A DNA stretch of 64,000 bases from Candidatus Krumholzibacteriota bacterium (GTDB lineage Bacteria > Krumholzibacteriota > Krumholzibacteriia > JAJRXK01): assembly GCA_963764625.1 (NCBI GenBank), contig CAVXTH010000006.1, positions 672,001 through 736,000 of the forward strand. The letters are read 5' to 3'. Both the position numbers and the translations under genes were made by a program. This document shows positions 1-34,356 of this stretch, in pieces (the stretch's first letter is position 1; the number at the start of each line of letters is the position of its first letter). The notes beneath the pieces were generated by a model, which worked only from the letters and a program-made list of their open reading frames with translations, had not been told where the DNA came from and made no database searches.

Positions 1-1741
1 AGCCCGTCGAGCGGACCTCAATCTCGAAGCGATCACCAAGTTCCTTTCTGAACCAGAGGCCGATCGGCATCACGAATCCCTGTTTGCGTTCGGTCAAGAC
101 GGATTCGGGCAGCCACTTTCGAGCCGCGGCACGCAGCAGTTCCTTTCGACGCCCACCCATCATCCGTTGCTCCAGAGGAACACGAAAGGCGGCCTCGAGG
201 AGTTCATGGTCCAGTAGCGGTACCCTGGTTTCTAGGGACACCTGCATGCTGGCCCGATCTACTTTCTGAAGAATATCATCTGGCAGGTAGGTCTCGACGT
301 CGAGCCGGAGAAGTCTCTCGACCGGATCGCCCGGTGCTTCTTGGTAGATCTTTCGGTATAGATCGTAAGGCCTGAAGTCCTCGAGAGCGTGCTGAATCTC
401 CGGGCGCAGGATGCCACGCCATTCGTCAGAAGGGAATACGGAGACCATGTCGAGGTAGCGGTCGATGAAGGACAGAGCTGCTCTTTGGAGCATTCCCTTG
501 CCGAGCCGATTGGAGGGCCAGGATCTCGCGAGATATCCGAACGCGGGTCTTCTAAGAAGCGTGGGAATCCGGTCGAAGATACGCGAGCGCTCCATGCGAG
601 TGTAACGGGTGTATCCACCGAATCCCTCATCTCCACCGTCTCCACTCAAAGTGACTTTCACGGCGCTGCGCGCCATCTTGCTCACGTAGTAAGTTGGAAT
701 GATGGAATTGTCTGCCAGGAAATCATCCAGATTCGGGCATATCTGATCGACGGAGGAGATCGCGGAGAGTTCAACCACCTGCTCATGATGCCTTGTGTGA
801 ACGTGATCGGCGACAGCCCTGGCATACGCCCGCTCGTCGCTTCCATGCTCCTGGAAACCGATCGTAAAGGTGTCGAGAGCCGTCTCGATGCACTCGGAGA
901 GAGCTCCCACGACGAGGCTCGAATCGAGTCCGCCGCTGAGGAAGGCCCCAAGGGGGGCGTCGCTCATCTTTCGATATCGAACGGAGGTGTGAATGCGATC
1001 GCGGATGAGATCGACGCTGTCTGCGAAAGTGTGCGTGCTGCCCTCCGAGCTGTAATCATTCAGAGTCCAGTAGCGCTGAATCTCAGGGGTTGGATGCTTC
1101 TCGGCCAGTCTGAATCGGAGGAAATGGCCTGGAAGGAGTCGCCGAATGCCGGTAAACGGCGTGTAGTCGCGCGGCGTGTAGCCCATGCAAAAGTAGTAGC
1201 CCAGACTCTCGAGATCGATCTGACCACCGATTGAGGGAACACAGAGGAGCGCTTTGATCTCACTGGCAAAAGCCAGTCCTCCTGGAAGGACCGCATAGTA
1301 CAAGGGCTTGATGCCTACCCGGTCACGAGCGAGGAAGAGCTCTTGGCGCGAATGGTCCCAGATGCCGAAGGCAAACATCCCGTTCAGCCGCTCGAGCATC
1401 GCGGGGCCGTGCGATTCCCAAAGATGGAGCAGGACCTCGGTATCGGTTTTCGAGCGAAACCGGCTGCCCGTAGTCTCGAGGACCGAGCGAAGTTCTGCAT
1501 GGTTGTACACTTCGCCGTTGTAGGTGATCCAAGTCCTCTCATCGGTACCGTTCATCGGCTGATGCCCGGCCTTGCTGAGATCGATGATGCTGAGGCGACA
1601 ATGGCCGAGTCCGACCCCGGCGTCGGTCCAAACTCCATCGTCATCTGGACCACGGTGCTTGATTCGGTCGATCATGCCAGCAACTAGATCCCTGGAGACC
1701 TCCCGCCTGTCCGTATAGACCACGCCGGCAATGCCACACAT
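1..1741 (-). CDS. asnB: Asparagine synthase (glutamine-hydrolysing)-like amidotransferase, runs off the left edge
   Basis: Absent from the ORF track because no stop lies in the window. The reverse complement starts ATG at 1741 = MCGIAGV (Ntn Cys1). The in-frame C-terminal part reads DVETYLPDDILQKVDRASMQVSLETRVPLLDH...KQGF. Confidence 0.92.
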   Translation of the reverse strand, partial: MCGIAGVVYTDRREVSRDLVAGMIDRIKHRGPDDDGVWTDAGVGLGHCRLSIIDLSKAGHQPMNGTDERTWITYNGEVYNHAELRSVLETTGSRFRSKTDTEVLLHLWESHGPAMLERLNGMFAFGIWDHSRQELFLARDRVGIKPLYYAVLPGGLAFASEIKALLCVPSIGGQIDLESLGYYFCMGYTPRDYTPFTGIRRLLPGHFLRFRLAEKHPTPEIQRYWTLNDYSSEGSTHTFADSVDLIRDRIHTSVRYRKMSDAPLGAFLSGGLDSSLVVGALSECIETALDTFTIGFQEHGSDERAYARAVADHVHTRHHEQVVELSAISSVDQICPNLDDFLADNSIIPTYYVSKMARSAVKVTLSGDGGDEGFGGYTRYTRMERSRIFDRIPTLLRRPAFGYLARSWPSNRLGKGMLQRAALSFIDRYLDMVSVFPSDEWRGILRPEIQHALEDFRPYDLYRKIYQEAPGDPVERLLRLDVETYLPDDILQKVDRASMQVSLETRVPLLDHELLEAAFRVPLEQRMMGGRRKELLRAAARKWLPESVLTERKQGFVMPIGLWFRKELGDRFEIEVRSTG

Positions 1742-1977
1742 AATTCGGGAACGCTCCTCGTTCTGGTCCTGTCCAACTCCGTTGAGCCCAATGGCACGGG
1801 GGATGGCGAGGAACCTAACACAGTCGCTTCTCCCGGGGAACCACACAGAGCGTCCTAGGGGTCTGGAAATGTGGGGTGTACGGCCTCTGACGGTGTGGTA
1901 AAGTAATACATTCCTGGGCTCAGAAGCGTGGCACGGGCTCGAGTCTCTCTCACTCTGACTTTTGGATTCGTCACTCC

Positions 1978-3843
1978 ATGTGCGGAATTGCTGGGCGCTA
2001 TCTGACAGCCTCTGTCGAGCGAGATCCCGGAGCGGAAGAGACTCTTCTTCAGAAGATGTCCCAAGCCCTCAAACATCGTGGACCGGACGATTCTGGAGTC
2101 GCGTGGAACAGGGGAGTGGGACTTGCGTTCGCGCGGCTCTCCATCATCGATCTGAGTGGTGGCCATCAGCCGATGGAGTATGCAGATGGCCGCTATGCGA
2201 TCGTATTCAACGGTGAGATCTACAATTTCGAGCAGCTGAGGCGAGAACTCGAGGGCATGGGCTTCAGGTTTGCGACGAACAGCGACACCGAAGTACTTCT
2301 GGCTCTCTATGCAAAGCACGGTCGACAACTCTTGGACCGGCTCAACGGGATGTTCGCATTCGCAATTCACGATCGCGGCACCGGAGAGATCTTCCTGGCT
2401 CGTGATCGCCTGGGAATCAAGCCTCTGTACTACTCCCTGGGCCCGGCGGGCCTCTTCTTTTCCAGCGAAGTGAAGGCCCTGAGACTCTGTCCAGAAATCT
2501 CCCTGGAGCTGGATCCTCAAGCCCTGAGGGAGTATCTGAGCTACGGTCACATTCCTGCCCCCGGAACGGTTTATCGTTCCGTCCGAACTCTCCCGCCCGG
2601 TCACTGGCTGGTCTTCGACGGAAGTAGCTTCAAGATGGAGCGGTATTGGAGAGTCACTGCCAAGAGTTCACCCCATCGTTCACTTGCCGAGGCATCGGAG
2701 AGCCTATTCGAGCTACTCAAGGACTCAGTTCGACTCAGAATGATCTCCGATGTTCCGCTTGGAGCGTTTCTGAGTGGGGGCATAGATTCTGGATTGATCT
2801 CCAGTGTCATGAGTTTGCTCTCCGAGCGTCCGGTGCGAACCTTCAGCGTCGGCTTTGCGGAGGCAGATTTCGACGAAAGGGAAGCCGCGAGGAGAGTCGC
2901 GAGCAAGTATGGGACGGACCATCAGGAAATCGTCTGCACCGACGACATGCGAGACTTGGTGCCCATGATCGCGACCGCGTTTGATCAACCCTTCGCCGAC
3001 TCGTCTGCCCTGCCAACGTACCTCGTATGCCGTGAAGCTCGAAAATACGCGACGGTCGTTCTCTCGGGGGACGGCGGTGATGAGTGTTTCGCCGGATACA
3101 ATCGCCACAGCGTGTTCGCAGAGGGGGCAGGGGAACACGGTTTCAATCCGCTGCTGAAATGGGGCGCAGGGAAGTTGGCGGCACTGGTAGATCCCCTGAG
3201 TCGGGGTGCGCAGAGGCTTAACCGGGCGAGTCTCAACACTTCAGAATTACAACTCGATGGATTGACGCTCATCGATGGGCGGGTGAGGAATCGCCTTGCA
3301 GGTGATCGCCTGAGGAGAATCGGTCGTAGCAAAGAGTTTAGGGACCGATGGCTGGAGGAACAAGGTCGAGGGAATGCGGATCGTCTGCAAGCGATGCAGC
3401 TTCTCGAGTTCGAACTCTACCTGCCTGGTGACATTCTCGAGAAGGTTGACAAGATGAGCATGCTCAATTCTCTCGAGGTGCGAGTACCCTTCCTCGACCA
3501 TCGGATCGTGGAGTTCGGCCTATCCTTGTCCAGTGGCTTGAAGAACGATGGTCAGCGGGGAAAACTGATTCTGCGGGAGCTGGGGAAGACGCTTCTCCCC
3601 GCGGGGCATCTGGAGCGTCCCAAGGTGGGCTTTGCCATCCCCATCGACGAATGGATGCGCTCTGGATTGAGAGAATTGGTACAGGACAACTTGAGGCCTT
3701 CCCGCGTAGCCGAGGATGGATGGTTGAATCAGAGGATCGTCGACAAGATCATCGACCTGCAGAGGAGAGGCCGCCCTTGGGGTCCAGTGGTATGGACTCT
3801 GCTAGTCTTGGAGCTTTGGTATCGTTCGGTATCGAGCAATTAG
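1978..3843 (+). CDS. asnB: Asparagine synthase (glutamine-hydrolysing)-like amidotransferase
   Basis: MCGIAG start; HRGPD, RLSIID, FNGEIYNF, LSGGIDS, SGDGGDE, KVDKMSM and RVPFLDH motifs. Confidence 0.95.
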   Translation: MCGIAGRYLTASVERDPGAEETLLQKMSQALKHRGPDDSGVAWNRGVGLAFARLSIIDLSGGHQPMEYADGRYAIVFNGEIYNFEQLRRELEGMGFRFATNSDTEVLLALYAKHGRQLLDRLNGMFAFAIHDRGTGEIFLARDRLGIKPLYYSLGPAGLFFSSEVKALRLCPEISLELDPQALREYLSYGHIPAPGTVYRSVRTLPPGHWLVFDGSSFKMERYWRVTAKSSPHRSLAEASESLFELLKDSVRLRMISDVPLGAFLSGGIDSGLISSVMSLLSERPVRTFSVGFAEADFDEREAARRVASKYGTDHQEIVCTDDMRDLVPMIATAFDQPFADSSALPTYLVCREARKYATVVLSGDGGDECFAGYNRHSVFAEGAGEHGFNPLLKWGAGKLAALVDPLSRGAQRLNRASLNTSELQLDGLTLIDGRVRNRLAGDRLRRIGRSKEFRDRWLEEQGRGNADRLQAMQLLEFELYLPGDILEKVDKMSMLNSLEVRVPFLDHRIVEFGLSLSSGLKNDGQRGKLILRELGKTLLPAGHLERPKVGFAIPIDEWMRSGLRELVQDNLRPSRVAEDGWLNQRIVDKIIDLQRRGRPWGPVVWTLLVLELWYRSVSSN

Positions 3844-3861: not shown

Positions 3862-4437
3862 ATGATGGGATTCAGAGATTGTTTCACGTTGGATCTCATG
3901 GCGAGGCAACCCAGATCGTATGGCTTCCGGGAATTGCTCCGGCGTCTGATCTACGAGCCGGGTTACCGGGTTGTGGTCTACTATCGCCTGTCTCAATGGT
4001 TTCTCTGCCTGCGGTGGCTGGGCCACCTGGGAAAGATGGCCTCTCAACTCATTCTGGTGCGAATCTCTAGAGTTCCAGGCGTGGAGATCAGAACTCCCGT
4101 ACCGATTGGTGAGGGGCTGCTCATTTACCACCCGCATGACGTCGTCATCGGTTCTGGGGCAAGGGTCGGTCGCAACGCAACGATCTACAACGGGGTTACT
4201 CTAGGCGCCAGGACTCGCATCGCCTTGGACGAAAACAAGGACGTTTCGAGTCGGTATCCGACGCTCGAGGACGACGTCACCGTATTTCCCGGGGCGAAAC
4301 TCGTAGGGCCAATCGTGATTGGAAAGGGCTCCATTGTCGCAGCGAATGCCGTCGTGACAGAGAGCTTTCCTCCGGGCAGTATCATCGGGGGAATACCCGC
4401 GAGGCTCCTCAAATCACTTGACCCGGAAGAGACGTAG
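3862..4437 (+). CDS. Serine O-acetyltransferase-like hexapeptide-repeat acetyltransferase (probably acts on a sugar or glycan)
   Basis: Hexapeptide repeats (IGEGLLIYHPHDVVIGSGARVGRNATIYNGVTLG...IGKGSIVAANAVV), GIPAR C-terminus; glycan-locus context. Confidence 0.85.
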   Translation: MMGFRDCFTLDLMARQPRSYGFRELLRRLIYEPGYRVVVYYRLSQWFLCLRWLGHLGKMASQLILVRISRVPGVEIRTPVPIGEGLLIYHPHDVVIGSGARVGRNATIYNGVTLGARTRIALDENKDVSSRYPTLEDDVTVFPGAKLVGPIVIGKGSIVAANAVVTESFPPGSIIGGIPARLLKSLDPEET

Positions 4438-4534: not shown

Positions 4535-5461
4535 ATGCAGCGGTCAGAGCTAGAACTTCCGGGTGGTCAGACGATTCGTCAAGGTCAGCCGTTGGCGCCA
4601 TATACCACCTTTGGCATTGGCGGGCCGGCCGAGTGCCTCGTAGTCCCGGAAACGCTAGAGCAGTTTGCGGAGGCCTTGGCGTGGTCCAGAGAGCGAGGAA
4701 TATCTCTCACTCTGCTGGGTGGTGGCAGCAACGTTCTGATTGCGGATGAGGGTATCCCGGGGTTGACCATCCTGACCCGTCGTTTCAAAGCAATTCACCA
4801 GGTGTCCGAGGATACTCTTGACTGCGAGTGTGGTTGCTTTCTTCCCCATCTATCGCGCTTCGCGGAACGACTTGGCAGAGCTGGTTGGGAATTCATGGCT
4901 GCGATTCCCGGCACCGTAGGGGCAGCGGTACGGATCAACGCAGGATTGGGAAGTGGGGGCGAAATGGCCGACTGGCTCATCGGTGTCGAAGCGTTAGATC
5001 GCTCTGGAAGCAGACATGAGTTTTCCAAAGAGGATCTCGAATATGGCTACCGCCATTCGCTGCTACTTGGTCGAAGCGACCTCTTCGTCGTACAGGCCAG
5101 GCTGAAGTTGGGAAAAGAGGATTCTCCGGAGGGCATCGAGAAGAGGACAGTGGAACTACTGGCCCGGCGAAAGAGAAAAGCCCCGAAAAACCCCAGAAAT
5201 TGTGGAAGTGTCTTTCGAAAGACCGAAGATGGCATCCCCGCGGGACTCTTAATCGAGAAAGCGGGTTACAAGGGGCATCGAATGGGCCGGTGCCAGGTAT
5301 CCTCCGAGCACGCAAACTGGGTCGTGAACTTGGGGGGAGCAACCGCCGATGAAGTCAAGGCGTTGATTGCCGAGGTATCACGTGCGGTGGAGGAGGAACA
5401 CGGCGTTAGACTCCGTCGCGAAGTCGTGTACCTTCCAGAGGATCGCAAAGGAGACTCATGA
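4535..5461 (+). CDS. murB: UDP-N-acetylenolpyruvoylglucosamine reductase family (MurB paralog in a glycan locus)
   Basis: YTTFGIGGPA, LGGGSNVL, IPGTVGAAVRINAG, YGYRHS, GSVF, HANW and LRREV motifs. Confidence 0.9.
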   Translation: MQRSELELPGGQTIRQGQPLAPYTTFGIGGPAECLVVPETLEQFAEALAWSRERGISLTLLGGGSNVLIADEGIPGLTILTRRFKAIHQVSEDTLDCECGCFLPHLSRFAERLGRAGWEFMAAIPGTVGAAVRINAGLGSGGEMADWLIGVEALDRSGSRHEFSKEDLEYGYRHSLLLGRSDLFVVQARLKLGKEDSPEGIEKRTVELLARRKRKAPKNPRNCGSVFRKTEDGIPAGLLIEKAGYKGHRMGRCQVSSEHANWVVNLGGATADEVKALIAEVSRAVEEEHGVRLRREVVYLPEDRKGDS

Positions 5462-6753
5462 GCGAAGCGTCGCCAGACTACCAAATCGTCGTCGAGCCCT
5501 CGCGCTTGGAAGGCGTGGTCGAACTCAGCGGTGCCAAGAACAGCGCGCTGAAATTGGTCGCCGCCTCGATCCTTACCGATGAGGCGCTTCATCTCGAGGG
5601 TTTCCCGTCCAAGCTTACCGACGTGAATGTGATGCTCGACATGGTCGGCACGCTCGGTAAGGAGGTGGCGAGAGGCGAGAAGACAGTGGGAATCCACGGA
5701 GTCTGCTCGAGTACTTCCATCGAGCCTCAGGCCAGATCTGTCCGCACGAGTTTGCTGCTTCTTGCTGCCCTCATTGCCCGCTACGGAGAGGGCGCGGTCC
5801 CCGTACCGGGAGGATGTCAGATCGGGGAACGAAAGTACGATCTCCATCAATTGGTGCTGGAGAGTCTTGGGGCCCGAATCTGGGAGGAGAATGGGCTGCT
5901 CTTGGGTTCCTCGAAGGGCCGCTTGAAAGGGGAGTCGATTCGTCTGCCGATACGTTCGACGGGCGCGACTGAAAGCGCATTGCTTGCCGGCTCCATCGCA
6001 GAGGGCACGACGACGATCTGGAACCCACATGTACGTCCCGAGGTCCTCGATCTCGTCTCTCTGCTCGAGAAGATGGGAGCACACATTCGTGTTTACGGCC
6101 AAGAGAGAATCGAGATTGAGGGCGTGGAGGGCCTTTACGGGGCTCGGCATCGCGTCATCGTCGACAACATGGAGGCGTTCACCTTCTTGGTAGCGGCAGC
6201 GGTGACCGATGGACACGTCGAAATCCTGGGATTTCCGACCCGTGACCTGGAAGTTCCTCTCATTTTCGCACGTGCCGCCGGGGTTCATCTCTACCAAGGT
6301 CGTGCGTCGCTCATCGTCAGCGGTGGTGAGCACTGGCCGGTGGAGATCAGTACCGGCCCCTATCCGGGGATCAATAGCGACATGCAGCCTCTTTTCGCCG
6401 TTCTTGGCTCGTGCGCCGTAGGGGAGAGCCGGATCACAGACCTTCGCTTTCCGGATCGCTTCGGATACGTTGCCGAACTCAAGCGCTTCGGTGGAGAGTA
6501 CAAAGTCGAAGGAAACCTCCTCACGATCAAAGGTGGAGCGGCACGAACTGGCGCTACGGTACGCGCTCTCGATCTGCGGTGTGGAGCGGCTCTGCTCACT
6601 GCGGGGATGGCCGCCAAAGGTGTCACACGGATACTGAATGCCCAGCAGATCGACCGTGGCTACGAGTATATCGTTGGAAAACTGCAAGGTCTCGGAGGAA
6701 TACTCCGCCGAGAGGATAGTACCAGCGAAGATCCGATGATCCTTCGTGACTGA
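5458..6753 (+). CDS. murA: UDP-N-acetylglucosamine 1-carboxyvinyltransferase family (divergent MurA paralog)
   Basis: SGAKNSAL, PGGCQIGER (active-site Cys loop), PGINSDMQ, DLRCGAAL and IDRGYE motifs; ATGA overlap with murB. Confidence 0.9.
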   Translation: MSEASPDYQIVVEPSRLEGVVELSGAKNSALKLVAASILTDEALHLEGFPSKLTDVNVMLDMVGTLGKEVARGEKTVGIHGVCSSTSIEPQARSVRTSLLLLAALIARYGEGAVPVPGGCQIGERKYDLHQLVLESLGARIWEENGLLLGSSKGRLKGESIRLPIRSTGATESALLAGSIAEGTTTIWNPHVRPEVLDLVSLLEKMGAHIRVYGQERIEIEGVEGLYGARHRVIVDNMEAFTFLVAAAVTDGHVEILGFPTRDLEVPLIFARAAGVHLYQGRASLIVSGGEHWPVEISTGPYPGINSDMQPLFAVLGSCAVGESRITDLRFPDRFGYVAELKRFGGEYKVEGNLLTIKGGAARTGATVRALDLRCGAALLTAGMAAKGVTRILNAQQIDRGYEYIVGKLQGLGGILRREDSTSEDPMILRD

Positions 6754-6768: not shown

Positions 6769-8100
6769 ATGGTGTCGCGAATTCAGCCTTCAGCACTTCG
6801 CCACATTCTCGAGACCCTTGGTACCCAAATAGCGGTACTCGCGCTGGGTGTGGTGAGTGGAGTGATCGTAGCGCGTGTCCTGGGACCGGCTGGCCGAGGG
6901 CGATATGCTCTTCTCATGATGATACCGAGCCTCGCTTTCACGTTCGGCAATCTGGGGTTCGGAAGCGCAGGTACCTATTACCTGAATCGCGGAACCATTC
7001 CTCGGGGCCGCGTGGTCGGGTCCCTCTATTCAGTTGGCGTAGCTCTGGCGTTGGTCAGCGTGACTACGATTCTGGTCCTTCATCCATGGCGGATTTCGAT
7101 TTGGCAGGATATTCCGAGGAGTCAGGTTGTTCTGGCAGTCCTCGTGACGCCGTTTCTCTTCGTCCTGAATTTTTCGAGTCGTATCCTTCTCGGCATCGGA
7201 CGAATCCGCCAGATGAACCTGCTCAAACTGGTGCAGGCGGCATGTGGCGTCGCAGCGGTCGTCATCCTCGTCGGATTACTGAGGCGTGGCGTCACCGGAG
7301 CGGTCATCGCGTTTGCGGCCTCGGGCGTCATCGGCGCCGCATGGGGGCTGACGGCAGGATTGTCGTCGGTGAAGGGGGACCGTTCACCCTCACGTAAGTT
7401 CATCGTGAGGGGGCTGGGATATGGTCTACCGTCGTTCCTGATCCTTTTGGCCAACTATCTCAATCACAACTTCGACGTCCTGCTGGTGAAGCACTATTTG
7501 GACAACTCGAGTGTCGGTCTCTACACCCTCGTAGTCGCCTGGGTCGAGCGGCTCCTCTACTTGCCACAGTCAGTGGGCACGGTTCTGTTTCAACGGGTCG
7601 CCTCGGACGAGAGTAGTGGCGAGCGTCAGCTTGTTCTGAGGAGCGGGCGTCATTCCGTTGCAGTCGTCGCTTTCGGCTCGATCGTTCTCGGTGTGGTGGC
7701 GCATGTCTTGATCGCCGGGCTGTATGGATCTGAATACATCGGCTCCGTCCCTGCGCTCTACAGCTTGCTCCCTGGCGTGGTGATGCTCTCTCTGTTTCAG
7801 ATCTACGCTGTTGCCTTGGCTGCGGATGGATACCCAAAGATCGGGGCGATCGGTTCGGCCGTTTCGTTTGGCGTTAACTATGGCCTGGATACGATCATGA
7901 TTCCGCGCATGGGCATTCTCGGCGCGGGAATCGCGACCTCGGTTTCCTATTCTCTGATGGCCTTCATCGTCCTGTTCGCGTACAAGAAAAGGTACGGTGT
8001 TACTTTCGGGGAAATGGTGTTTCTCCGAAAGACGGAGGCTCAGGAGTCCTTCCGGCGTTTGGTCGCCCATGTCAAAACTCCTGGGCGAGGCAGAAAATGA
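6769..8100 (+). CDS. wzx: Oligosaccharide flippase (Wzx/MATE-like polysaccharide biosynthesis protein)
   Basis: About 12 hydrophobic segments; ARVLGPAGRGRY, VGLY and MGILGAGIATSVSY motifs. Confidence 0.88.
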   Translation: MVSRIQPSALRHILETLGTQIAVLALGVVSGVIVARVLGPAGRGRYALLMMIPSLAFTFGNLGFGSAGTYYLNRGTIPRGRVVGSLYSVGVALALVSVTTILVLHPWRISIWQDIPRSQVVLAVLVTPFLFVLNFSSRILLGIGRIRQMNLLKLVQAACGVAAVVILVGLLRRGVTGAVIAFAASGVIGAAWGLTAGLSSVKGDRSPSRKFIVRGLGYGLPSFLILLANYLNHNFDVLLVKHYLDNSSVGLYTLVVAWVERLLYLPQSVGTVLFQRVASDESSGERQLVLRSGRHSVAVVAFGSIVLGVVAHVLIAGLYGSEYIGSVPALYSLLPGVVMLSLFQIYAVALAADGYPKIGAIGSAVSFGVNYGLDTIMIPRMGILGAGIATSVSYSLMAFIVLFAYKKRYGVTFGEMVFLRKTEAQESFRRLVAHVKTPGRGRK

Positions 8101-10541
8101 GAGCGCCTAAAGACGTCCTCAGTCGGGCGCTGTTGCTCGCCCCGCTGGCAGTGGCAGTAGCTCTACCTCAGACGGTCGGCGTTCTGTCTGTTTCCGCTGG
8201 CTGGCTTCTTCTGGTAGTACTGCCCGGGAATGGCTTCCTCCGCCTTTTCCCCATCACATTGCTTCGAGATGGTGACAACCTGGGGTTGCTCGATGCGTGG
8301 TTCGAATCGACCGTCGTGGGGGTCATGTGTCTGTCGCTTTGGCTCAGCCTTGCCGACATGGCGAGCATTCCCTTGGTCTATGCCGTGACCGTATTTGGTG
8401 GATTGGGCGTGGCCCTCTGGCTGACCAAAGGAACGTTTGGAACTCTGGTCCCTTCGCGGATCGGTTGGGAATACGTGCTCGTGGTGTCGCTGATTGCGCT
8501 CGGCACGGTGCGTGCCGTTCTTCTTTCCCGTGCGAATCCAGGTGGTACCGACGTGCTGGCGCACCTCGACGGCGTGCGGCAAGTGGTTGCGACGGGAGAG
8601 GTCTTCCCACACATGCCGAGAATCGATGGAATGGCGGGACTCAGACCCGACCCTCGGTTTGGAACGTGGCACGGGATGCTCGCCGGCATCTGGAAGCTAG
8701 CCGGGGGACCACTCTGGAGCACATGGGCATGGGTGGGAATTTGGATGATTGGGCCGATTCTAATCGCGATGGAGAGAGTCGCGCGGGCCATCTTTCGAAG
8801 CGCCGCTGCCGGCGCCGTCTGCTTGTTTGTGTATCTCCTGCTGATGCCAAGAGTGGAAGCGGACCTATTCTCAATCGCCGCGCTACCATCAGTAGTGGCA
8901 CGGAGCGTTGTCGGTTTCATCGTGCTTTGGCTCTGGCGCGGCCTCGACGAAAGCAAGTCGTTCCAGTGGAATTGGGGTCTCGTTGTACTCGCTGCGGGTC
9001 TTTCACTGTTCCGTTTGGACTACTACATGATGGTGGGCGGCGTGATCGGGATTCTCGCCTGTGTGGGCGCGTGCGGACTGGGGGGAGAGATTCGGTGGCT
9101 CTGGAGCAGGAGACTTGGCATCTGGGTTCTGAGTGGGCTTCCCTTTCTGATCTACAAGTACTGGCTGTCCCTTCCTACACCTCCTGGCTACATGTCACGG
9201 CATCTTGCGGGAGCATTGCTCCTCGGGGGCAAATGGTGGATGACCGATGTCTTCCAGGTTGGTCCTCTCGTCGGCGTTTTGTGGCTCTTGGGCATCATCT
9301 GGCTGGCCAAGGAGCGGGCAGCCCTGGACCAAAAAACGTGGCTTCTGCTCAGCGTCCTCTGCCTGGGAGCCGTTCAGGCATTCAATCCGCTGTTCTGCCG
9401 CGTACTCGAACCACTCGTGAGTGCCCCGTATATAATGCGGCTCGTGAAGCTGTTTCCGATCTACCTCCTCGTCACGGGAATGGTACTCGGCCTCACTCGA
9501 AGAACGGTGGGAGGGGAGAGAACCCACGGCGGCGTTCTGATGGGCTTCCTAACTCTGATCCTGGTTCTGCTCGCCAGCAACAGTAGCCTGAGGAATTGGA
9601 GCGCTTCGTTTCACGATCGGAAAGCAGACCATAGTTACGGAGTTGAACCTGGGATTCTCGAGTGGCTGCGAGCGCATGGAAATTCTGGAGTGATTGTCCT
9701 GGCCCACCCAAGCGTGGGCTATGCAATCGCCGGTTTGACGGATCTGTCGATCGTAGCCGCGCCGCCCAGCCATGCTTCACCGTGGGTGATTGATGCGCGT
9801 CAGCGAGAACGGGACGCAGATCGGACGCTCAGCCAGTGTACTTCCCTGCAGGAGCGGCGAAGAATACTCGAGAAATATCAGGCACAGTGGGTTTGCTTCA
9901 AGGAGGAGAAGGGAACGGCAGAGGACTGGGGTAGCGCGAGAGTACTGCATGAAGAGAACGGCTGGAAGCTGCTCGATGTTCCCCCCAAGCGGGAGAACCT
10001 TGAGAGCCCGGAGGATGACTGCAGCGTCGAGTTTCCCTCGAACCCATCGCATGGGCGGATCCTGTCGGTCGGAGATGAGATAGATGCTCTCATTGACTGG
10101 CCGGACACCGTGAGAGTCACCCAAGGTTCGACCACGACGCTTCCCCTCATATGGAAAGCAGAGGCACCCATTCCCGATCGCAAGATATGGGTGCTCAGGT
10201 TCGATCAGGACTATCCGCACGGGTTGCTGTATTGGAAGAGTTGGAGCAAGCCGTATCGCAAGTTGCAGGAGAACTTGAGTGGAGGTCGATATCGCTTTCG
10301 TGTCGAGGGGAGGCCTTGCAATGACCGACCCTCCGTCTTTTCCTGGGTGCCAAGCCAAGGGTACAGAGATGAGCTCGAGGTAACCGTTCCACATGACGTT
10401 CACAGAGGAATCTATCGCGTCGAACTGCGAATCCGTCCTTTCCAGTTCATGCAGAGCTACCACCCCGGTGATTACTTGAGTGATCACGATCTGTGGAGCG
10501 GTGTAGATTGCGGTACCGTCCTTCTGGTGGGAGGGCCTTGA
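8097..10541 (+). CDS. Large polytopic membrane protein, GT-C/STT3-like architecture
   Basis: Many TM segments, DxxxH (TDVLAH) in the first large external loop, then a soluble C-terminal domain (LEWLR...VLAHPSVGYAI...ILEKYQAQWV). Confidence 0.6.
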   Translation: MRAPKDVLSRALLLAPLAVAVALPQTVGVLSVSAGWLLLVVLPGNGFLRLFPITLLRDGDNLGLLDAWFESTVVGVMCLSLWLSLADMASIPLVYAVTVFGGLGVALWLTKGTFGTLVPSRIGWEYVLVVSLIALGTVRAVLLSRANPGGTDVLAHLDGVRQVVATGEVFPHMPRIDGMAGLRPDPRFGTWHGMLAGIWKLAGGPLWSTWAWVGIWMIGPILIAMERVARAIFRSAAAGAVCLFVYLLLMPRVEADLFSIAALPSVVARSVVGFIVLWLWRGLDESKSFQWNWGLVVLAAGLSLFRLDYYMMVGGVIGILACVGACGLGGEIRWLWSRRLGIWVLSGLPFLIYKYWLSLPTPPGYMSRHLAGALLLGGKWWMTDVFQVGPLVGVLWLLGIIWLAKERAALDQKTWLLLSVLCLGAVQAFNPLFCRVLEPLVSAPYIMRLVKLFPIYLLVTGMVLGLTRRTVGGERTHGGVLMGFLTLILVLLASNSSLRNWSASFHDRKADHSYGVEPGILEWLRAHGNSGVIVLAHPSVGYAIAGLTDLSIVAAPPSHASPWVIDARQRERDADRTLSQCTSLQERRRILEKYQAQWVCFKEEKGTAEDWGSARVLHEENGWKLLDVPPKRENLESPEDDCSVEFPSNPSHGRILSVGDEIDALIDWPDTVRVTQGSTTTLPLIWKAEAPIPDRKIWVLRFDQDYPHGLLYWKSWSKPYRKLQENLSGGRYRFRVEGRPCNDRPSVFSWVPSQGYRDELEVTVPHDVHRGIYRVELRIRPFQFMQSYHPGDYLSDHDLWSGVDCGTVLLVGGP

Positions 10542-10542: not shown

Positions 10543-11826
10543 GTGAGCGGGTCGCTTAGGATCCTCATCCATTTGGATTTCCTGGGACTTGGCGGACACA
10601 TGCTTTCCACCATCAGTCTCGCCAGTGCACTCCAGCGGCGAGGGCATGAAGTGCTCGTGGCAGGAGAGCTCGGACCCCTGCGCCAGAAACTCGAAGACTC
10701 ACATCTCCGTTTCGTGCGCCTCCCACTCGGGCTGGATCCCATCCCTTCGATGCCGGTGTTCGACCCGCCAAATGGGGAGAGCATTGCTTCAGGATTGTCG
10801 GAGTTGGCAGTCAGCTGGAAGGCCAACGTCGTCCATGCGTTCCATCCTTATAACTTGCCCGCGGCACGGAGGGCTGCGCTTGCCGCGGACATTCCTTCCT
10901 TTCTTACCATCTGTGGGGGCAGACCGCAGTTCTCCCTTCCTGAAGGCCAGAGTGAGACGATCGTGTTCAGCGAGGAGTTGCGTGATGCCTATGTGCAAGC
11001 CGGCATCGTTGCCGAGGACAGAATTCATGTAGTGGAAAATCGCCTTCCGATTGCCGAATTGACGAGGGGACCCTGGAACCTCGAACCAGATCTCGAGGAA
11101 CGAATGCTACCGAATAGCCGAAGGATTCTCATGATCGGCCGTCTTGAAGAGGCGAAGATGAGCGGGACGTTACACGTCGTAGAGGCGATCTCGCGACTGC
11201 GAGAGAAGGTGGCCAATGTGCAGCTGCTCCTTGTGGGAGTAGGACCCGGCAGCCGTTCCGTGAGGGCTCGCGCGGCGGAACTCGGTCTCAGCGCGGAAAG
11301 CGGCGGATTCGTGGAGTATGGAAGAGTCTACGATGCCTACCGTCTGATCCCGCATGCCGACGTCTGCGCCGGCGTGGGAAGGAGTATTTTCGAGGCAATG
11401 GCGATCGGTCGGCCGTGCGTAATCGTGGGTGCGAACGGTTTCGCCGGCGTCGTTTCACCGGAGTGGATCGAACAAATCTCCTATTTCAACTTCTCAGGAC
11501 GAAATGCCACCAGTCCATCTACGGTACAGGCCCTTACAGACGCATTTGAAGAGCTACTTTCCAGAAAGCAGCTGTCAGAAGAACTGGTAGCCTTTGGACG
11601 TGATTACGCCGCGAAACGGCTGGATGTAGAAGTGGGTGCCGCGAAGTACGAGAAAACATACATGAACGCGCTGCGACAATGGGAGGAGGGAACGATACCG
11701 CGGGACAGAGTTCAGGCCATAGCGGACTACCGTAGGCAGCTACGCAAAAAGAGAGATGCCGCCCGCCGCGGAATGATCTTGAGACGAGCCTACCATGGCA
11801 TCACAAAGCTCCTGCACATTCGCTAG
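10543..11826 (+). CDS. Glycosyltransferase family 4
   Basis: LGGH...LASALQRRGHEV N-terminus; IGRL and FEAMAIGRP motifs. Confidence 0.88.
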   Translation: MSGSLRILIHLDFLGLGGHMLSTISLASALQRRGHEVLVAGELGPLRQKLEDSHLRFVRLPLGLDPIPSMPVFDPPNGESIASGLSELAVSWKANVVHAFHPYNLPAARRAALAADIPSFLTICGGRPQFSLPEGQSETIVFSEELRDAYVQAGIVAEDRIHVVENRLPIAELTRGPWNLEPDLEERMLPNSRRILMIGRLEEAKMSGTLHVVEAISRLREKVANVQLLLVGVGPGSRSVRARAAELGLSAESGGFVEYGRVYDAYRLIPHADVCAGVGRSIFEAMAIGRPCVIVGANGFAGVVSPEWIEQISYFNFSGRNATSPSTVQALTDAFEELLSRKQLSEELVAFGRDYAAKRLDVEVGAAKYEKTYMNALRQWEEGTIPRDRVQAIADYRRQLRKKRDAARRGMILRRAYHGITKLLHIR

Positions 11827-11872: not shown

Positions 11873-12544
11873 TCAGGCCTTCGGCATGAGGCGACGCAGC
11901 ACGAGCTTGGCGAGAGTTTTCAAGCCCACAGCAAAACTCTGTCCCTTGGAGAGGGAATACTCAGTGTAAATGGCCTTGATCGGAATCTCGACCAGCTTCA
12001 GCTTGTGCCGGCGCGATTCTGCAATGATCTCCGAAGAAACCTCCATTCGATTAGTTCTGATCTCGATCTTCTGTAGGGCTTCACGGCGAAACCCGCGGTA
12101 CCCCGATTGTGAGTCCGTTACCCAGGCACCGAAGAGAACAAGGGTGACCAGGTTTCCCACCCAGTTCGCGATCTGTCGCTTCTTGGGCATCCCGCGTGGA
12201 TCGAGCAGTCTGGAGCCGATGACGACATCCGCTCCTTCGCGGATAGCCGCCACGAAACGGGGGATGTCTTCTGGATCGTGCTGTCCGTCGGCATCGAGAC
12301 AGATGATCGCTTCGCCTCCGCGAGCCAGGGCCGCGGCGAAGCCCGTGCCCAGCGTGGCTCCGAGTCCTCGATTGATGACGTGCCGAACGAGAATCGCGTG
12401 TCCCGCGAGCGCGACCTGACTGGTCCCATCCTTGGAGCCGTCGTCGACGACCACGACCTCGTCGACCATGGGCGTGACGCGTTCCAGGACTTCCGGGAGA
12501 GTAGATTCTTCATTGAAGGCGGGGATCACCGCAATGGTCCTCAT
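11873..12544 (-). CDS. Glycosyltransferase family 2 (polyprenol-phosphate glycosyltransferase/DPM1-like)
   Basis: Start reassigned to MRTIAVIPAFNEE; VVDDGSKDGT, DADGQH, VIGSR and TDSQSGYR motifs. Confidence 0.9.
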   Translation of the reverse strand: MRTIAVIPAFNEESTLPEVLERVTPMVDEVVVVDDGSKDGTSQVALAGHAILVRHVINRGLGATLGTGFAAALARGGEAIICLDADGQHDPEDIPRFVAAIREGADVVIGSRLLDPRGMPKKRQIANWVGNLVTLVLFGAWVTDSQSGYRGFRREALQKIEIRTNRMEVSSEIIAESRRHKLKLVEIPIKAIYTEYSLSKGQSFAVGLKTLAKLVLRRLMPKA

Positions 12545-12807
12545 GCATCGATTGTAGACGGGCTGTGGAGGCGAAGCAAGCGGCGGCCTGGAACCAGCGA
12601 TTCGGGGCACGAACGCATCGTCCAAGGACGCGCCTTTCACGGACTTGCGGCGGGCGGGTCGAGGGGGGCCTCATACTTTCTTGTGCTTCCTCGAGGGGCC
12701 TTCTCCCGAAGCGAATCCGCCTACCTCCGGGCCGAGCGGGTGTGCTAGTCTCCAGCCCGTTTCGGGGGCCGTGCGAGTCCGCTGGCGAGAAAGGACGAGA
12801 GCCGGGG

Positions 12808-13851
12808 ATGAGAGTCCTGCTGATTTCCGAGCGCTGGGAGAGCGTAATTGACGAAGGCATGCTAGTCTTCCTCGATCGATTCGCCCGATTCCTCAAGACC
12901 AGATTTCCTCTCCTGATCGTCCACGAGAGGGGAAGTGGGGCCGACGATCTGCCTCTGCGCCGTTTGCGTTTGGGGAAGGCACTCGTTACCCCCGCGCTCC
13001 AGGAATGCCTTGAGAGCTTCCGCCCCGAGTTGGTCCTCTACTGTCCCACGGCCTGCGCGACTTTCAATGCGCTGGTGAGGCATTCCCGACTCAGTCGGGC
13101 GTACCGGGGAGTTCCCTGTGCGCTCTTGAGTCTCCAGAGCCGGGAGTACACTTGGTGGCAGCGGCCTCTTCTGCGTTACGTGCGGCCGTGGCGACTGGTG
13201 GTGCTTTCGCGAGCGCAGGAACTCGCTGCCCGGGATCATGGGTTTCCAACGCTCGCGATGCGCGCGGGAGTCGACCTCGACCGCTTTCGGCCGACACCAG
13301 ACGACGAGCGAGTTCGGCTCCGTCAGAAGTTTGGTTGGCCACAGGAGAAGAGAGTGATCCTGCACGTGGGTCATCTGTGTTCCGGCCGCGGTCTGCGGGC
13401 GCTGAAAAGTTTGGCTGGACAGCAAGGGCTTCACCTCGTCCTGGCGGCGAGCACGGCGAATCCGGCCAACGAATCTCTGAAGAGAGAGTTGGAGCAGGCG
13501 GGCGTCGAGGTTCACCATGAATACCTTCCCCGCATCGAGGATTTGTATCGGGCCGCCGACCTCTATCTGTTTCCAGTGAGGGAAGGGAGCGGGAGCATCG
13601 AGTTCCCCCTGTCGGTGCTGGAAGCGATGGCCTGCAATCTTCCGGTAGTGACCACTCCGTTCGGCGCGTTGGCGGAGAACTTCCTCGCTGGCGACGGGCT
13701 GCAGTATTTTCAGACGCCGGAAAAAATCCCGGCCGCAATGGACGCGGTGCTGTCGGCGCGAACCGACACTCGGGCGAAGGTGGAGGGCTTCAGCTGGGAG
13801 GCTGGTATGGAGACGCTGATGTCCGCATTGCGTGAGGCGATGAACTCGTGA
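12808..13851 (+). CDS. Glycosyltransferase family 4
   Basis: Start reassigned to MRVLLIS; GVDLDRF, HVGH and EFPLSVLEAMACNLPVV motifs. Confidence 0.88.
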   Translation: MRVLLISERWESVIDEGMLVFLDRFARFLKTRFPLLIVHERGSGADDLPLRRLRLGKALVTPALQECLESFRPELVLYCPTACATFNALVRHSRLSRAYRGVPCALLSLQSREYTWWQRPLLRYVRPWRLVVLSRAQELAARDHGFPTLAMRAGVDLDRFRPTPDDERVRLRQKFGWPQEKRVILHVGHLCSGRGLRALKSLAGQQGLHLVLAASTANPANESLKRELEQAGVEVHHEYLPRIEDLYRAADLYLFPVREGSGSIEFPLSVLEAMACNLPVVTTPFGALAENFLAGDGLQYFQTPEKIPAAMDAVLSARTDTRAKVEGFSWEAGMETLMSALREAMNS

Positions 13852-14528
13852 GTTCTACGCTGGTGTATCTTGCCGGTCTTGACGGCTCGGGAAAGAGCAC
13901 GCAGGCGCAGCTCTACGCATCCCAGGCGCGGAAACGGGGGGAAGTCTGGGATTATCGCTGGGCTCGCTGGGAGCCTTTCATCACCTCTCCCTTGATGCGT
14001 CTGGCCCGCTGGATCCTCGGACGTGGGGCCAAACGCGGATCCAGTCGGCCGCGAGACGATGCGGGATACGAGGATTTCACCCAGGGAAAGCAGCGTGTTT
14101 TCCGCAGCGCTTGGAGGCGAAAGGTGTGGACGACGGTGGTTCTGTTGGAATACCTCCCGCAGGCATGGTGGAGACTGGGGGGAAGCCGCCTTAGCGGGGA
14201 GCGGATTCTCTGCGACCGCTACCTCCCGGATCTCTGGGTCGATCTGGCGGTGAACTTCGCCAGCGGACCGGCAGGGATCGAGGCGCTGGCGCACCATCCC
14301 CTCTGTCGGCTCTTTCCCAGGATCGACAGAATGATCTTTCTGGATGTCGATCCACGAATCGGCTTCGAGCGCAAGAATGATGGAACTCCGCTTGCCTACC
14401 TGGAGGAGCGTAGGCCACTGTACCTGGCACTCGAGACCGTCTTGCCCTTTCAGCGCGTGAACGCGAATGGAAGTGTGGAAGAGGTAGCAAAAGGCCTCAG
14501 AGAAGCGATGGAACACAGGCCCGGCTGA
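13848..14528 (+). CDS. Thymidylate kinase-like P-loop protein
   Basis: GLDGSGKST P-loop, ILCDRY and IFLDVDP motifs of the dTMP kinase fold; coupled to the upstream GT4. Confidence 0.8.
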   Translation: MSSTLVYLAGLDGSGKSTQAQLYASQARKRGEVWDYRWARWEPFITSPLMRLARWILGRGAKRGSSRPRDDAGYEDFTQGKQRVFRSAWRRKVWTTVVLLEYLPQAWWRLGGSRLSGERILCDRYLPDLWVDLAVNFASGPAGIEALAHHPLCRLFPRIDRMIFLDVDPRIGFERKNDGTPLAYLEERRPLYLALETVLPFQRVNANGSVEEVAKGLREAMEHRPG

Positions 14529-14593
14529 GTCGATGGCAATGTGCTAAACTCATACGACGCCTAGGCTCCCCGAAACCCCACTTCAGGTCGTAC

Positions 14594-16111
14594 ATGAAAC
14601 GCCTCATCATCATCGGAATCGACGGGATGGACGCGGACTTCGTCGCCGCCCACCCCGAGGACATGCCCAACTTCCATCGCCTTGGCGAGAGGGGATATGG
14701 GGGTGGGCTCTACACGGTGTTTCCCTCGGATTCGATTCCCTCCTGGATCACCATCTTCACCGGGATCCCACCGGTGGATCACGGCATTCTGGATGCCATC
14801 GACTACTTCAAGAAGAACTGCACCGATTTTTCGGTCGATACTTCGGTGTTCAAGGGACGCACTTTTTGGGACGTCGCTTCCGATGCCGGCAAGAGCGTGT
14901 GCATCATCAATCCCTTCATGGCGTATCCTCCCTGGCGCGTGAACGGCTGCATGGTGAGCGGGCCGGTCTTCGTGACTGATGGTAAGGAGGCCGCGTGGCC
15001 TAAGGATCTCGGAGCGGAGTTCCCGATTCCCTCCATGGGAGGAATCGTCGACTTTCCCTCCAAGGAAACCCTCCATCAGTTTCGTCGGGAAAGCATCGAG
15101 TACACCGAAACGCAGCATCGTTTCTCCTTGAAGCTGTTGCGCAAGAAGGGTCCTTTCGATCTGTTCTTCTCCACCTATCTCACGCTCGATCGAGTCCAGC
15201 ATTTCTACTGGCGCTACCACGACCAAGAGGATCCCACCTACCCTGGACCTACCGAGCACGAGGGTGTAGTTCTGGAATTCTATCGGCTCTTCGATCGTTT
15301 GGTGGGGGAGTACATGGAGGCCGCGGGAGACGAGTACGAGATCATGGTGGTGAGCGATCACGGACACGGTCGCCGCTGCACGAAAGTGGCGAACGTCAAC
15401 GAATATCTGCGACGTAAAGGCTGGCTCGAGGCGCGCGGCGGCAGCAAGAATCCGCTGAACCCGCGGCGCCTGGTGCAAAAGCTGAAGACCTCGACCTTGA
15501 ACATGCTCGATCGCCTTGATATGGCCGACGTGGCACATCGCATCGTGAAGACGGTGCCGAAGGTGCGTGAACTGAAGAAGACCTCGTTTCTGGTGGACGA
15601 GGAGAGCAACCTCGTCTTCACTCCGCGCTTCGCCGGAACCAATCCCTGTGGCGGGGTGTCCATTAACCGCGCGGTGTGCGCGGCGCGAGCGATCGATTAC
15701 GAGGAGCTGCGCGCCGAGCTGAAACGCGACCTCTTGGCCATGCGCGACGAGGGGACGGGGGAGAGCCTTTTCCAGTGGGTCTTGACGCGGGAAGAGTACG
15801 TGGGCAACGGCCAGGCCATCTCCAAGTTCCCCGATCTGGTCTTTCTGCTGAAAATGGAATACGGCACGGGATGGGATCTCTTTGGGGACATCGTGTCGAC
15901 GAACCCGACGCACCGAAAGATCTCCGGGGGCCACAAACTGCGAGGCGTGCTGTACACGAGCCTCGATCCTCACGCTGCTGAAGGGGATATCGAAGAGACA
16001 CCCGCCGTGCATGACATAGCCCCGCTGGTGCTCCACACTCTCGGCTTACCGCGCCAGCCCTGGATGCGACGAGTGGGCCACGCAAAGCCCGAGGTGGCAT
16101 GCGAATCTTGA
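14594..16111 (+). CDS. Alkaline-phosphatase superfamily (type I phosphodiesterase/nucleotide pyrophosphatase)
   Basis: IGIDG, DSIPSWITIFTG, LDRVQH, VSDHG and GGH metal-ligand motifs. Confidence 0.88.
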   Translation: MKRLIIIGIDGMDADFVAAHPEDMPNFHRLGERGYGGGLYTVFPSDSIPSWITIFTGIPPVDHGILDAIDYFKKNCTDFSVDTSVFKGRTFWDVASDAGKSVCIINPFMAYPPWRVNGCMVSGPVFVTDGKEAAWPKDLGAEFPIPSMGGIVDFPSKETLHQFRRESIEYTETQHRFSLKLLRKKGPFDLFFSTYLTLDRVQHFYWRYHDQEDPTYPGPTEHEGVVLEFYRLFDRLVGEYMEAAGDEYEIMVVSDHGHGRRCTKVANVNEYLRRKGWLEARGGSKNPLNPRRLVQKLKTSTLNMLDRLDMADVAHRIVKTVPKVRELKKTSFLVDEESNLVFTPRFAGTNPCGGVSINRAVCAARAIDYEELRAELKRDLLAMRDEGTGESLFQWVLTREEYVGNGQAISKFPDLVFLLKMEYGTGWDLFGDIVSTNPTHRKISGGHKLRGVLYTSLDPHAAEGDIEETPAVHDIAPLVLHTLGLPRQPWMRRVGHAKPEVACES

Positions 16112-17340: not shown

Positions 17341-17349
17341 GGTTGCAAC

Positions 17350-19591: not shown

Positions 19592-19694
19592 CGATCGGCC
19601 GAACTCGCGGAACCGGCGGGGAAGACTCGAAGGCACACCTCACGGTGGAGAATACTATTGCCCTCACAGCCACGCTTCAGGTAGCATCGTAAGT

Positions 19695-24821: not shown

Positions 24822-24832
24822 AGGCGTCGCGG

Positions 24833-25993: not shown

Positions 25994-25994
25994 C

Positions 25995-28103: not shown

Positions 28104-28121
28104 ACGATAGGGGCGCCCGCC

Positions 28122-29000: not shown

Positions 29001-29247
29001 GGAATCCTCCCCGAAAGTGCCCGGTTTCACGCCCGGAGGCCAAGGCTAGCAGAGCCCGGGCCAGCTGGCGAGGGAGAGCTGGAGCCTGAGCCGCCGGTCC
29101 GGCGCCGTGAAGCCCGCCCTGGGGGCCTCGGGGAGGGGGCAGCGGGCAGGGGCGGTAATTTCTTATTGGAAAGGAACTTGCATGGAAAAAAGAGCGGCAT
29201 TGAGCCCCTTGGAATCCTTCAATTTTCTATGCTATACTGCGTGGGTC

Positions 29248-30360: not shown

Positions 30361-30461
30361 GACGGAGGGCCGTCCCGGGATTCGAATGGAGCGTGTGAAA
30401 TCTGACACCTGGTTTGAAGGGGCCGGGTGTACGATCAGGGTCGGCCATCGATCACCGTGTA

Positions 30462-31217: not shown

Positions 31218-31269
31218 GCGACCCCTAATTCCTAATGACAAAGGCCAGACCTTCAAGCGAGGACCACCA

Positions 31270-33446: not shown

Positions 33447-33468
33447 AAGCGGCAGAGGAGGACCGAGA

Positions 33469-34353: not shown

Positions 34354-34356
34354 GCG

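Follow-up and report, generated by a model that had tools for sequence, protein, structure and literature searches.

The 64,000-nucleotide stretch of DNA analysed here (the window: Candidatus Krumholzibacteriota bacterium, JAJRXK01, GCA_963764625.1, contig CAVXTH010000006.1, positions 672,001-736,000, forward strand; coordinates below are window positions) carries, within a surface-glycan operon, two overlapping genes for homologues of the cell-wall enzymes MurB and MurA, which we call murB2 (4535..5461, +; 308 amino acids, aa) and murA2 (5458..6753, +; 431 aa). We consider it likely that the pair serves a dedicated, horizontally spread pathway, in which a UDP-activated lactyl-ether sugar is made, decorated by an acetyltransferase and perhaps by an AsnB-type amidotransferase, and built into a surface polysaccharide via a glycosyltransferase (GT) and a flippase of the same gene cluster. 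The pair is additional to the housekeeping murA and murB genes of the genome, the catalytic residues of MurA2 are intact, and MurA2 belongs, as judged from its phylogeny, to a separate clade that has been transferred between phyla. While the enzyme principle as such is already known, the subfamily, its residue signature and the cassette are uncharacterised in the literature searched.

In the proposed pathway, MurA2 would move enolpyruvate from phosphoenolpyruvate (PEP) onto a hydroxyl of a UDP-sugar, and MurB2 would reduce the resulting enol ether with NADPH and FAD to a 1-carboxyethyl (lactyl) ether. Decoration of the sugar could then follow, by the hexapeptide acyltransferase of the cassette, by its AsnB amidotransferase or by both; the GT4-like enzyme would attach the sugar to a polyprenyl-linked repeat unit and the Wzx flippase would flip this unit. 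The destination of the lactyl-ether sugar is thus most likely a surface polysaccharide and not the cell wall. The cassette comprises the genes at 3862-11826 and probably also the AsnB gene at 1978-3843. We infer the reactions, the sugar that serves as acceptor and what each partner does from homology and gene context.

A MurA/MurB pair besides the housekeeping genes

A reading of this DNA made from the letters alone (the sequence-only reading) had described coupled MurB and MurA reading frames in a surface-glycan operon, and the coordinates, the domains and an ATGA overlap between the murB2 stop and the murA2 start confirm this description. By virtue of this overlap the two genes are predicted to be translationally coupled. 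According to open reading frame (ORF) calls and domain search, they stand in a tight co-directional run with the order AsnB-AcT-MurB-MurA-Wzx-p814-GT4 (AcT, the acyltransferase; p814, an 814-aa protein). An antisense ORF of 497 aa (5266-6759, -) covers all of murA2. ORFs opposite the clade murA were called by a greedy gene caller at six loci in all, including L015 and L042, and the one over murA2 is probably an artefact of GC-rich codon usage rather than a gene.

A search of the genome for separate housekeeping murA and murB genes found both (contigs of this genome are labelled C5 and C6, and the window begins at C6:672 kb). The housekeeping murA (C5:226077-227321) lies beside prfA and prmC, and its product scores 538.3 bits on TIGR01072 and is 37% identical to MurA2. 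The housekeeping murB is located at C6:276605-277510, and MurB2 is 39% identical to its product. Moreover, the four Mur-ligase genes map to C6:361-370 kb, about 300 kb from the window, in agreement with the earlier remark that no peptidoglycan genes are nearby. All five clade-bearing genomes tested (5/5) also carry a housekeeping-type MurA, with 32-40% identity to the clade protein.

Close relatives of MurA2 are widely scattered. Among the protein clusters listed, 119 others are 54-74% identical to MurA2, with source labels that include Methanosarcina barkeri (one clade member), Natranaerovirga, Rhodonellum, Cecembia and Pseudoflavitalea. A motif-driven scan with one genome per species yielded 80 loci, 33 of which, at 48% identity or more, are referred to as clade loci; these fall into Bacteroidota, Cyanobacteriota, Pseudomonadota, Verrucomicrobiota, Kiritimatiellota, Armatimonadota, Campylobacterota, Thermodesulfobacteriota and Bacillota. 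Cultured carriers include Sphingomonas sp. Leaf20, Psychroserpens burtonensis DSM 12212, Zhouia amylolytica, Shewanella insulae and Acetobacterium paludosum. In a quick maximum-likelihood tree of 96 MurA rows (SH-aLRT support only, midpoint-rooted), MurA2 falls within a clade of 44 rows (SH-aLRT 99) from at least nine phyla, which are intermixed, and the housekeeping MurA of the same genome groups with the housekeeping-type rows. Similarly, in a tree of 54 MurB rows, MurB2 and its orthologue in a congener (G002) join cyanobacterial cassette MurBs (SH-aLRT 99) and lie apart from the clade of MurBs that the genus inherited vertically. Both proteins of the pair therefore lie outside the vertically inherited clades.

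Among close relatives the pair is sporadic: only one of the 60 relatives searched, the congener G002, has a MurA2 orthologue (74% identity), all other matches being at most 41% identical. Two of the five genus members thus carry the pair, against 0 of the 56 remaining relatives searched. In G002 the gene order of the entire cluster is preserved, with protein identities of 51-89% (Wzx 66%, the 814-aa protein 51%); a block from the GT2 gene to the last GT4 gene is syntenic at 66-89%, and AsnB genes flank the syntenic cluster there as well. The acetyltransferase was not detectable in it. Clade members were also found in seven plasmid or chromid records of Rhizobium (five), Agrobacterium and Qingshengfaniella, at 49-54% identity. 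One of these, a Qingshengfaniella alkalisoli plasmid (L123; NZ_CP042263.1, 104167-107000), carries a minimal cassette of a gene for a 178-aa hypothetical protein, the clade MurA, MurB and a GT2, and its clade MurA gene is annotated with cell-cycle, cell-division and cell-wall-organisation GO terms. When a clade gene from Shewanella was compared with 5,426 E. coli genomes by blastn in distant mode, nothing matched, although distant protein homologues could escape such a search.

The MurA2/MurZ proteins of Gram-positive bacteria are backup peptidoglycan isozymes, and the pair might accordingly be a set of redundant or stress-backup isozymes, or else a fosfomycin-tolerance device. Both proteins keep all catalytic residues, and annotation pipelines indeed label them as cell-wall enzymes. 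We nevertheless regard this explanation as very unlikely, given that the pair is part of a glycan operon that has a flippase and a glycosyltransferase of its own and lies far from the Mur-ligase genes, that it is sporadic within the genus and missing from the other relatives searched, and that Methanosarcina is given as the source of one clade member. As for fosfomycin, Cys115 is kept in 153/153 clade sequences, which argues against intrinsic resistance of the Cys-to-Asp kind (PMC8698320). The cell-wall labels with their cell-division GO terms can mislead metabolic models, and mislabelled cassettes can distort the numbers of peptidoglycan genes recorded for archaea and for uncultured phyla. 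For archaea outside the pseudomurein methanogens, the roles of MurA-like and MurB-like proteins are called unclear in the part of PMC10117817 consulted, with extracellular polysaccharides suggested as a possibility.

Active site and acceptor pocket of MurA2

MurA2 has the full-length fold of its family: the EPSP_synthase domain (PF00275) matches residues 13-409 (E 4.1e-66) and the solved MurA structure 1NAW matches residues 12-418 (E 8e-75). It scores below the equivalog cut-off for murA (TIGR01072, 368.5 vs 392.7) and above the cut-off of a subfamily model (NF006873, 380.5 vs 297). As the sequence-only reading had noted, the catalytic Lys, Cys and Asp are kept (Lys27, Cys120 and Asp308, equal to E. 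coli Lys22, Cys115 and Asp305), and the motifs that it had quoted are present (GERKYD, VRPE, DNME and DLRFPDRF in MurA2; GSVFRK in MurB2). We tabulated residues for 153 clade sequences, seven sequences of a second cassette-type clade described below and 44 housekeeping-type sequences, excluding the long-branch row L090; numbering follows E. coli MurA, via alignment to E. cloacae/E. coli MurA, and the housekeeping-type sequences come from the motif-driven scan, with 35 of the 44 rows from Pseudomonadota. Six catalytic or PEP-binding residues (Lys22, Asn23, Arg91, Cys115, Arg120 and Arg331) are invariant in all groups, including 153/153 in the clade; Asp305, Asp369, Arg371 and Arg397 are found in 152/153 clade sequences, with at most one sequence missing per group. 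All ten are carried by MurA2 of the window.

The hydrogen-bond and ionic contacts of 12 MurA-UDP-GlcNAc crystal structures are tabulated in PMC13750019 (Table 1). For 1UAE, as far as the contacts are given there, eight of 11 UDP-GlcNAc contact positions are identical in MurA2 (Arg120, Asp305, Asn23, Arg91, Asp123, Leu124, Ser162 and Gly164). Since the UDP contacts Asp123, Leu124, Ser162 and Gly164 are retained, a UDP-sugar is the likely acceptor. The three changed positions are K160 (to Ile), V163 (to Thr) and I327 (to Arg, residue 330 of MurA2), and some contacts may be main-chain ones; within the clade, position 160 varies between Ile, Met and Leu, and Thr163 and Arg327 are invariant or nearly so.

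The differences extend beyond these three contacts. Position 327 is Ile or Val in 44/44 housekeeping-type sequences and Arg in 152/153 sequences of the MurA2 clade as well as in 7/7 of the second clade. The Val at position 163 of housekeeping-type enzymes is replaced by Thr in 153/153 clade sequences, Pro at 121 by Lys in 147/153 and Ala at 119 by Glu or Asp in 150/153. Moreover, the clade has Tyr or Phe for Val at 122, Arg for Val at 161, His for Ala at 186, Arg for Glu at 188, Asn for Arg at 232 and Ile-Asn-Ser for Phe-Pro-Thr at 302-304. Positions 119, 121, 163 and 327 figure in the published contact lists, as far as these are covered by the part of PMC13750019 used here. With this fixed signature, the two kinds of MurA can easily be distinguished.

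How far the pocket departs from UDP-GlcNAc can be read in two ways. In the narrower one, which is nested within our preferred explanation, the pair would convert UDP-GlcNAc to UDP-MurNAc and thereby form a private supply for a MurNAc-containing surface glycan. The identity of eight of the 11 contact positions of 1UAE, in the partial contact data at hand, speaks for it, as do the score of MurB2 over the UDP-N-acetylmuramate dehydrogenase equivalog cut-off and the NCBI subfamily model, which names clade members MurA. Set against these are the score of MurA2 (368.5 vs the murA equivalog cut-off of 392.7), near-invariant changes at or beside contacts (Arg327, Thr163, Lys121, Glu/Asp119 and Ile-Asn-Ser at 302-304) and the recurrence of many of the same pocket changes in the second cassette clade. 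Since these changes are conserved across phyla, selection appears to maintain a pocket that is different from that of the housekeeping enzyme. We regard the private supply of UDP-MurNAc as a serious minority possibility, to which we would give roughly a third of our belief.

The pocket changes would also be in line with a different acceptor or with a different hydroxyl as the target, yet they prove neither; several of the contacts concerned may be main-chain ones. That the acceptor is a sugar nucleotide other than UDP-GlcNAc is a tentative proposal, which we would put somewhat short of an even chance. With the same reserve, the MurA2 clade might represent an uncharacterised specificity among UDP-sugar enolpyruvyl transferases, acting on an acceptor or hydroxyl different from O-3 of UDP-GlcNAc, and constitute the main MurA/MurB-type route to the lactyl-ether sugars of O-antigens and exopolysaccharides in many bacterial phyla and some archaea. 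Arg327, Lys121/Tyr122, Thr163 and an Ile-Asn-Ser-Asp loop would be its markers.

MurB2 looks far more conventional. Its FAD_binding_4 (E 4.9e-19) and MurB_C (E 2.5e-28) domains identify a homologue of type II UDP-N-acetylenolpyruvoylglucosamine reductases, it exceeds the equivalog cut-offs of NF010480 (280.3; cut-off 259) and TIGR00179 (195.3; cut-off 144.5), and its best solved relatives are the type II MurB structures 3TX1, 4PYT and 1HSK. Arg173, Ser225 and Glu296, which we take to be the catalytic triad of MurB, are kept relative to the housekeeping copy and align with Listeria 3TX1. The sequence-only reading had regarded MurB2 as divergent, based on its GSVFRK motif. This part of the reading did not hold, not only on account of the equivalog scores but also because the Listeria type II MurB 3TX1 has GSVFKRP at the same site, so that the difference is not meaningful.

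A conserved cassette and its partners

To characterise the surroundings of the clade murA genes, neighbour-family hidden Markov models were searched in the 33 clade loci at E <= 1e-10. This survey of homologue neighbourhoods, which the sequence-only reading had named as a way to check its proposal, revealed polysaccharide clusters with MurB, an acetyltransferase, Wzx and glycosyltransferases. MurB is present in 25 of the 33 loci, within about 3.2 kb of MurA, and was not found near housekeeping-type murA in any of 43 loci. A hexapeptide acyltransferase occurs in 18/33, often no more than about 120 nt from MurA, a GT4-like family that includes the window protein encoded at 10543-11826 in 13/33, usually last in the order, and Wzx likewise in 13/33; these four partners are all co-directional in the clade loci. 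Furthermore, an epimerase/dehydratase is encoded in 16/33, UDP-glucose dehydrogenase in 9/33 and AsnB in 5/33, and other neighbours include Wzy, Wzc, GT2, GT4 and epimerases. The window follows the same pattern, with an Arg327-type MurA, MurB, a modifier, Wzx and a GT4-like enzyme, plus a housekeeping MurA elsewhere in the genome. At one clade locus (L041, from Paraglaciecola aquimarina), the murB beside the clade murA (11282-12400) matches in three pieces that lie in separate reading frames, and this murB may be frameshifted or decaying.

The typical order is MurA-AcT-(MurB)-Wzx-(MurB)-GT4, and in two loci (L007 and L009) it is MurA-AsnB-Wzx-MurB-GT4. Between MurA and Wzx, an acetyltransferase gene is found in L008, L012, L022, L034 and L038, AsnB in L007 and L009, and a sulfotransferase-like gene in L011, L026 and L031, directly after MurA in L011 and L031. 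Because different modifier genes fill the same place, the position beside MurA looks like a swappable modifier slot, which suggests interchangeable decoration of one and the same sugar. The earlier proposal that the neighbouring AsnB enzymes amidate the carboxyl of the lactyl sugar thereby gains modest support, from the five clade loci with AsnB and its position in L007 and L009; accordingly, we treat the AsnB at 1978-3843 as a candidate amidation modifier of the cassette sugar. The GT4-like protein at 10543-11826 is a candidate transferase for the lactyl sugar.

A second cassette-type MurA clade was found in Bacillota loci (L035, L036, L037 and L043) and as second MurA copies in relatives of the same class (G027, G042 and G046; the extra copies form rows L088/L096, at G027:C147:2373-4435, L089 and L091). 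MurB is adjacent in L035, L036, L043 and G027. Like the MurA2 clade, this clade has Lys121, Tyr/Phe122, Thr163, Arg188, Asn303, Ser304 and Arg327, but it branches separately (SH-aLRT 99), on that side of the midpoint-rooted tree where the housekeeping enzymes lie, and its members are only 36-41% identical to MurA2.

Several observations weigh against the proposed lactyl-ether pathway. No assay of any MurA2-clade enzyme was found in the literature searched, and the product is a prediction from homology and context. MurB2, as an ordinary MurB over the equivalog cut-off, is uninformative about a new substrate; the cassette MurBs do not form one clade in the 54-row tree but at least two groups, with weak deep nodes; and the comparison set behind the residue table is motif-driven and taxonomically skewed (35 of the 44 housekeeping-type rows from Pseudomonadota). 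Moreover, MurB was not found in eight of the 33 clade loci. In four of these, one flank is shorter than 2.6 kb; the other four (L012, L021, L026 and L033) lack MurB although both flanks measure at least 5.8 kb, which means that the reduction is not always encoded alongside. In L021 and L026, a DDE transposase gene (DDE_3/IS630-like; L021:6996-8033 and L026:8916-9938) lies directly upstream of the clade murA, which fits a recent rearrangement or mobility of the cassette. Finally, the only lactyl-sugar gene named in the literature searched, wfeP, may belong to another enzyme family, as discussed below.

The loci without MurB raise the possibility that the enolpyruvyl (carboxyvinyl) ether made by MurA2 remains unchanged or is converted by a different enzyme, in which case MurB2 would be dispensable or would act elsewhere. 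Apart from the four clade loci with ample flanks and no MurB, the data run against this explanation. In the window, murB2 and murA2 overlap, and 25 of the 33 clade loci have MurB within about 3.2 kb. Furthermore, a scan of 21 neighbouring ORFs, from six of the eight loci without MurB, revealed no FrhB-type reductase, and the MurB-less genomes may use their housekeeping MurB. We consider a carboxyvinyl end product highly improbable. The proposal made from the letters alone, that of a pair dedicated to supplying a lactyl-ether nucleotide sugar to a glycan other than peptidoglycan, came through the genomic checks, its product being a prediction from sequence.

Compared with the housekeeping enzymes MurA (EC 2.5.1.7; 1UAE, 1NAW) and type II MurB (EC 1.3.1.98; 3TX1, 1HSK), MurA2 and MurB2 have the same folds and catalytic residues and would be expected to follow the same two-step logic of enolpyruvyl transfer from PEP and flavin-dependent reduction. 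They differ from the housekeeping enzymes in their only 37-39% identity to the copies of the same genome, in the transferred MurA clade, in the Wzx-type glycan operon, in the changed MurA2 pocket and in the score of MurA2 under the equivalog cut-off. A MurA-family enzyme recruited outside the cell wall is known in NikO (4FQD), the enolpyruvyl-UMP transferase of nikkomycin synthesis, which acts on UMP in an antibiotic pathway. Its match to MurA2 (E 5.5e-31) is confined to residues 168-419 and falls far short of the MurA match. The ketal pyruvyltransferases (PF04230; CsaB, WcaK and WcfO) likewise add a three-carbon acid to glycans in a PEP-dependent manner, according to the part of PMC6801904 consulted. 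Unlike MurA2/MurB2, they have an unrelated fold, form a cyclic ketal instead of an ether and involve no reduction step.

The glucolactilic-acid genes of the E. coli O124/Shigella O antigens reportedly comprise wfeP and a second gene, in work said to be that of Liu (2008) and Senchenkova (2006). Reports of lactyl-ether sugars in many O-antigens and exopolysaccharides go back decades. Lactyl ethers have been described in the O-antigens of E. coli O58, O124, O146, O69 and O150 (PMC7685785, in the sections consulted) and in exopolysaccharides of Salinivibrio and Cyanospira (PMC8466920, likewise in part). The former, an E. coli review, attributes UDP-GlcLA synthesis to wfeP in those same sections, and in the literature searched only such wfeP-type genes of E. 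coli and Shigella were tied to lactyl-ether sugars. The wfeP system resembles the cassette in that a lactyl-ether sugar of a surface polysaccharide is made as a nucleotide sugar. In an exopolysaccharide cluster table of Zunongwangia, a gene annotated as WfeP adjoins a 4Fe-4S protein (PMC4332637, as far as the table was consulted), and a Campylobacter preprint ties a proposed glucolactilic acid to a pyruvyl transferase gene. The WfeP route is therefore probably not MurA/MurB-like and may well belong to another enzyme family, a distinction drawn from annotations and citations. We had considered wfeP-type genes as MurA/MurB homologues and dropped this idea in view of the same Zunongwangia table.

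The literature searched yielded no paper in which a lactyl-ether polysaccharide is ascribed to a pair of MurA/MurB paralogues, although subscription-journal papers and supplements may differ in this respect. If the new specificity discussed above proves true, MurA2, its MurB partner and a swappable modifier (acetyl-, amido- or sulfotransferase) would provide a route alongside that of the WfeP type, to which it is unrelated. The cassette represents a specific candidate pathway to lactyl-ether sugars, one that is found widely and is easy to assay.

Further features of the glycan locus

The co-directional run is opened by an AsnB-type amidotransferase gene (1978..3843, +) that stops 19 nt ahead of the acyltransferase gene. 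Another AsnB-type glutamine amidotransferase of the asparagine-synthase family (2..1846, -) is divergent from the operon and extends past the window start; it matches Pfam Asn_synthase (1.9e-83) and GATase_6/7 and scores 482.7 bits on TIGR01536 (cut-off 267.1) and 556.8 on TIGR03108, under the cut-off of 816.9. The hexapeptide-repeat acyltransferase (3862..4437, +) is CysE/EpsC-like (Pfam Hexapep 3.6e-13; NF041874 EpsC 116.9 bits, under the cut-off of 150) and is probably the sugar O-acetyltransferase of the cassette. Although a promoter-like site lies in the gap between this gene and murB2 (4477-4504), we do not count it as evidence; the scan of 1-20000 for promoters and terminators gave no excess over shuffled sequences (4 vs 5.4 and 14 vs 15.5). 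The sequencing runs listed as sharing words with this DNA include none of RNA, and the five listed share at most 0.28 of the words sampled.

Downstream of murA2, the Wzx-type flippase (6769..8100, +) matches Polysacc_synt and Polysacc_synt_3, and its stop is overlapped by 4 nt by the start of the gene for the 814-aa protein (8097..10541, +). Of the neighbours named by the sequence-only reading, the flippase and the GT4 were recovered, and its GT-C-like assignment of the 814-aa protein found no backing in Pfam and NCBIfam searches, which gave zero family matches. Language-model look-alikes of this protein are hypothetical proteins, commonest in Krumholzibacteriota, with weaker resemblance to DUF6541, DUF1616 and DUF6077. 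Its N-terminal two thirds look hydrophobic by eye, and it may be a polymerase or a GT-C-like protein. The GT4-like glycosyltransferase (10543..11826, +) gives weak GT4 matches in Pfam, and its family travels with the cassette.

Further genes of the glycan locus at 11873..20411 encode a GT2 (-), four GT4 enzymes, a 226-aa P-loop-like protein, an alkaline-phosphatase-superfamily phosphodiesterase and a methyltransferase. A second block of surface-glycan genes (23688..39518) includes a radical SAM protein (23688-24821, +), GT4 enzymes, an FGE-sulfatase-domain protein with a C-terminal FlgD-Ig domain (25788-28103, +), an RmlD-like reductase, a polyprenyl synthetase and a GT2. Within this block, a DegT aminotransferase, a PglC-like initiating sugar transferase (30414-31217) and a GFO/IDH/MocA oxidoreductase are encoded in a row (29107-32307, +), a set that resembles gene sets for amino- or diamino-sugar precursors of the WbpB/WbpE type. 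Between the two blocks lies a penicillin-amidase-family gene (21177-23585, +; 802 aa, E 3.5e-141), and DNA of G002 matches it at the corresponding place with 69% identity over 2.2 kb.

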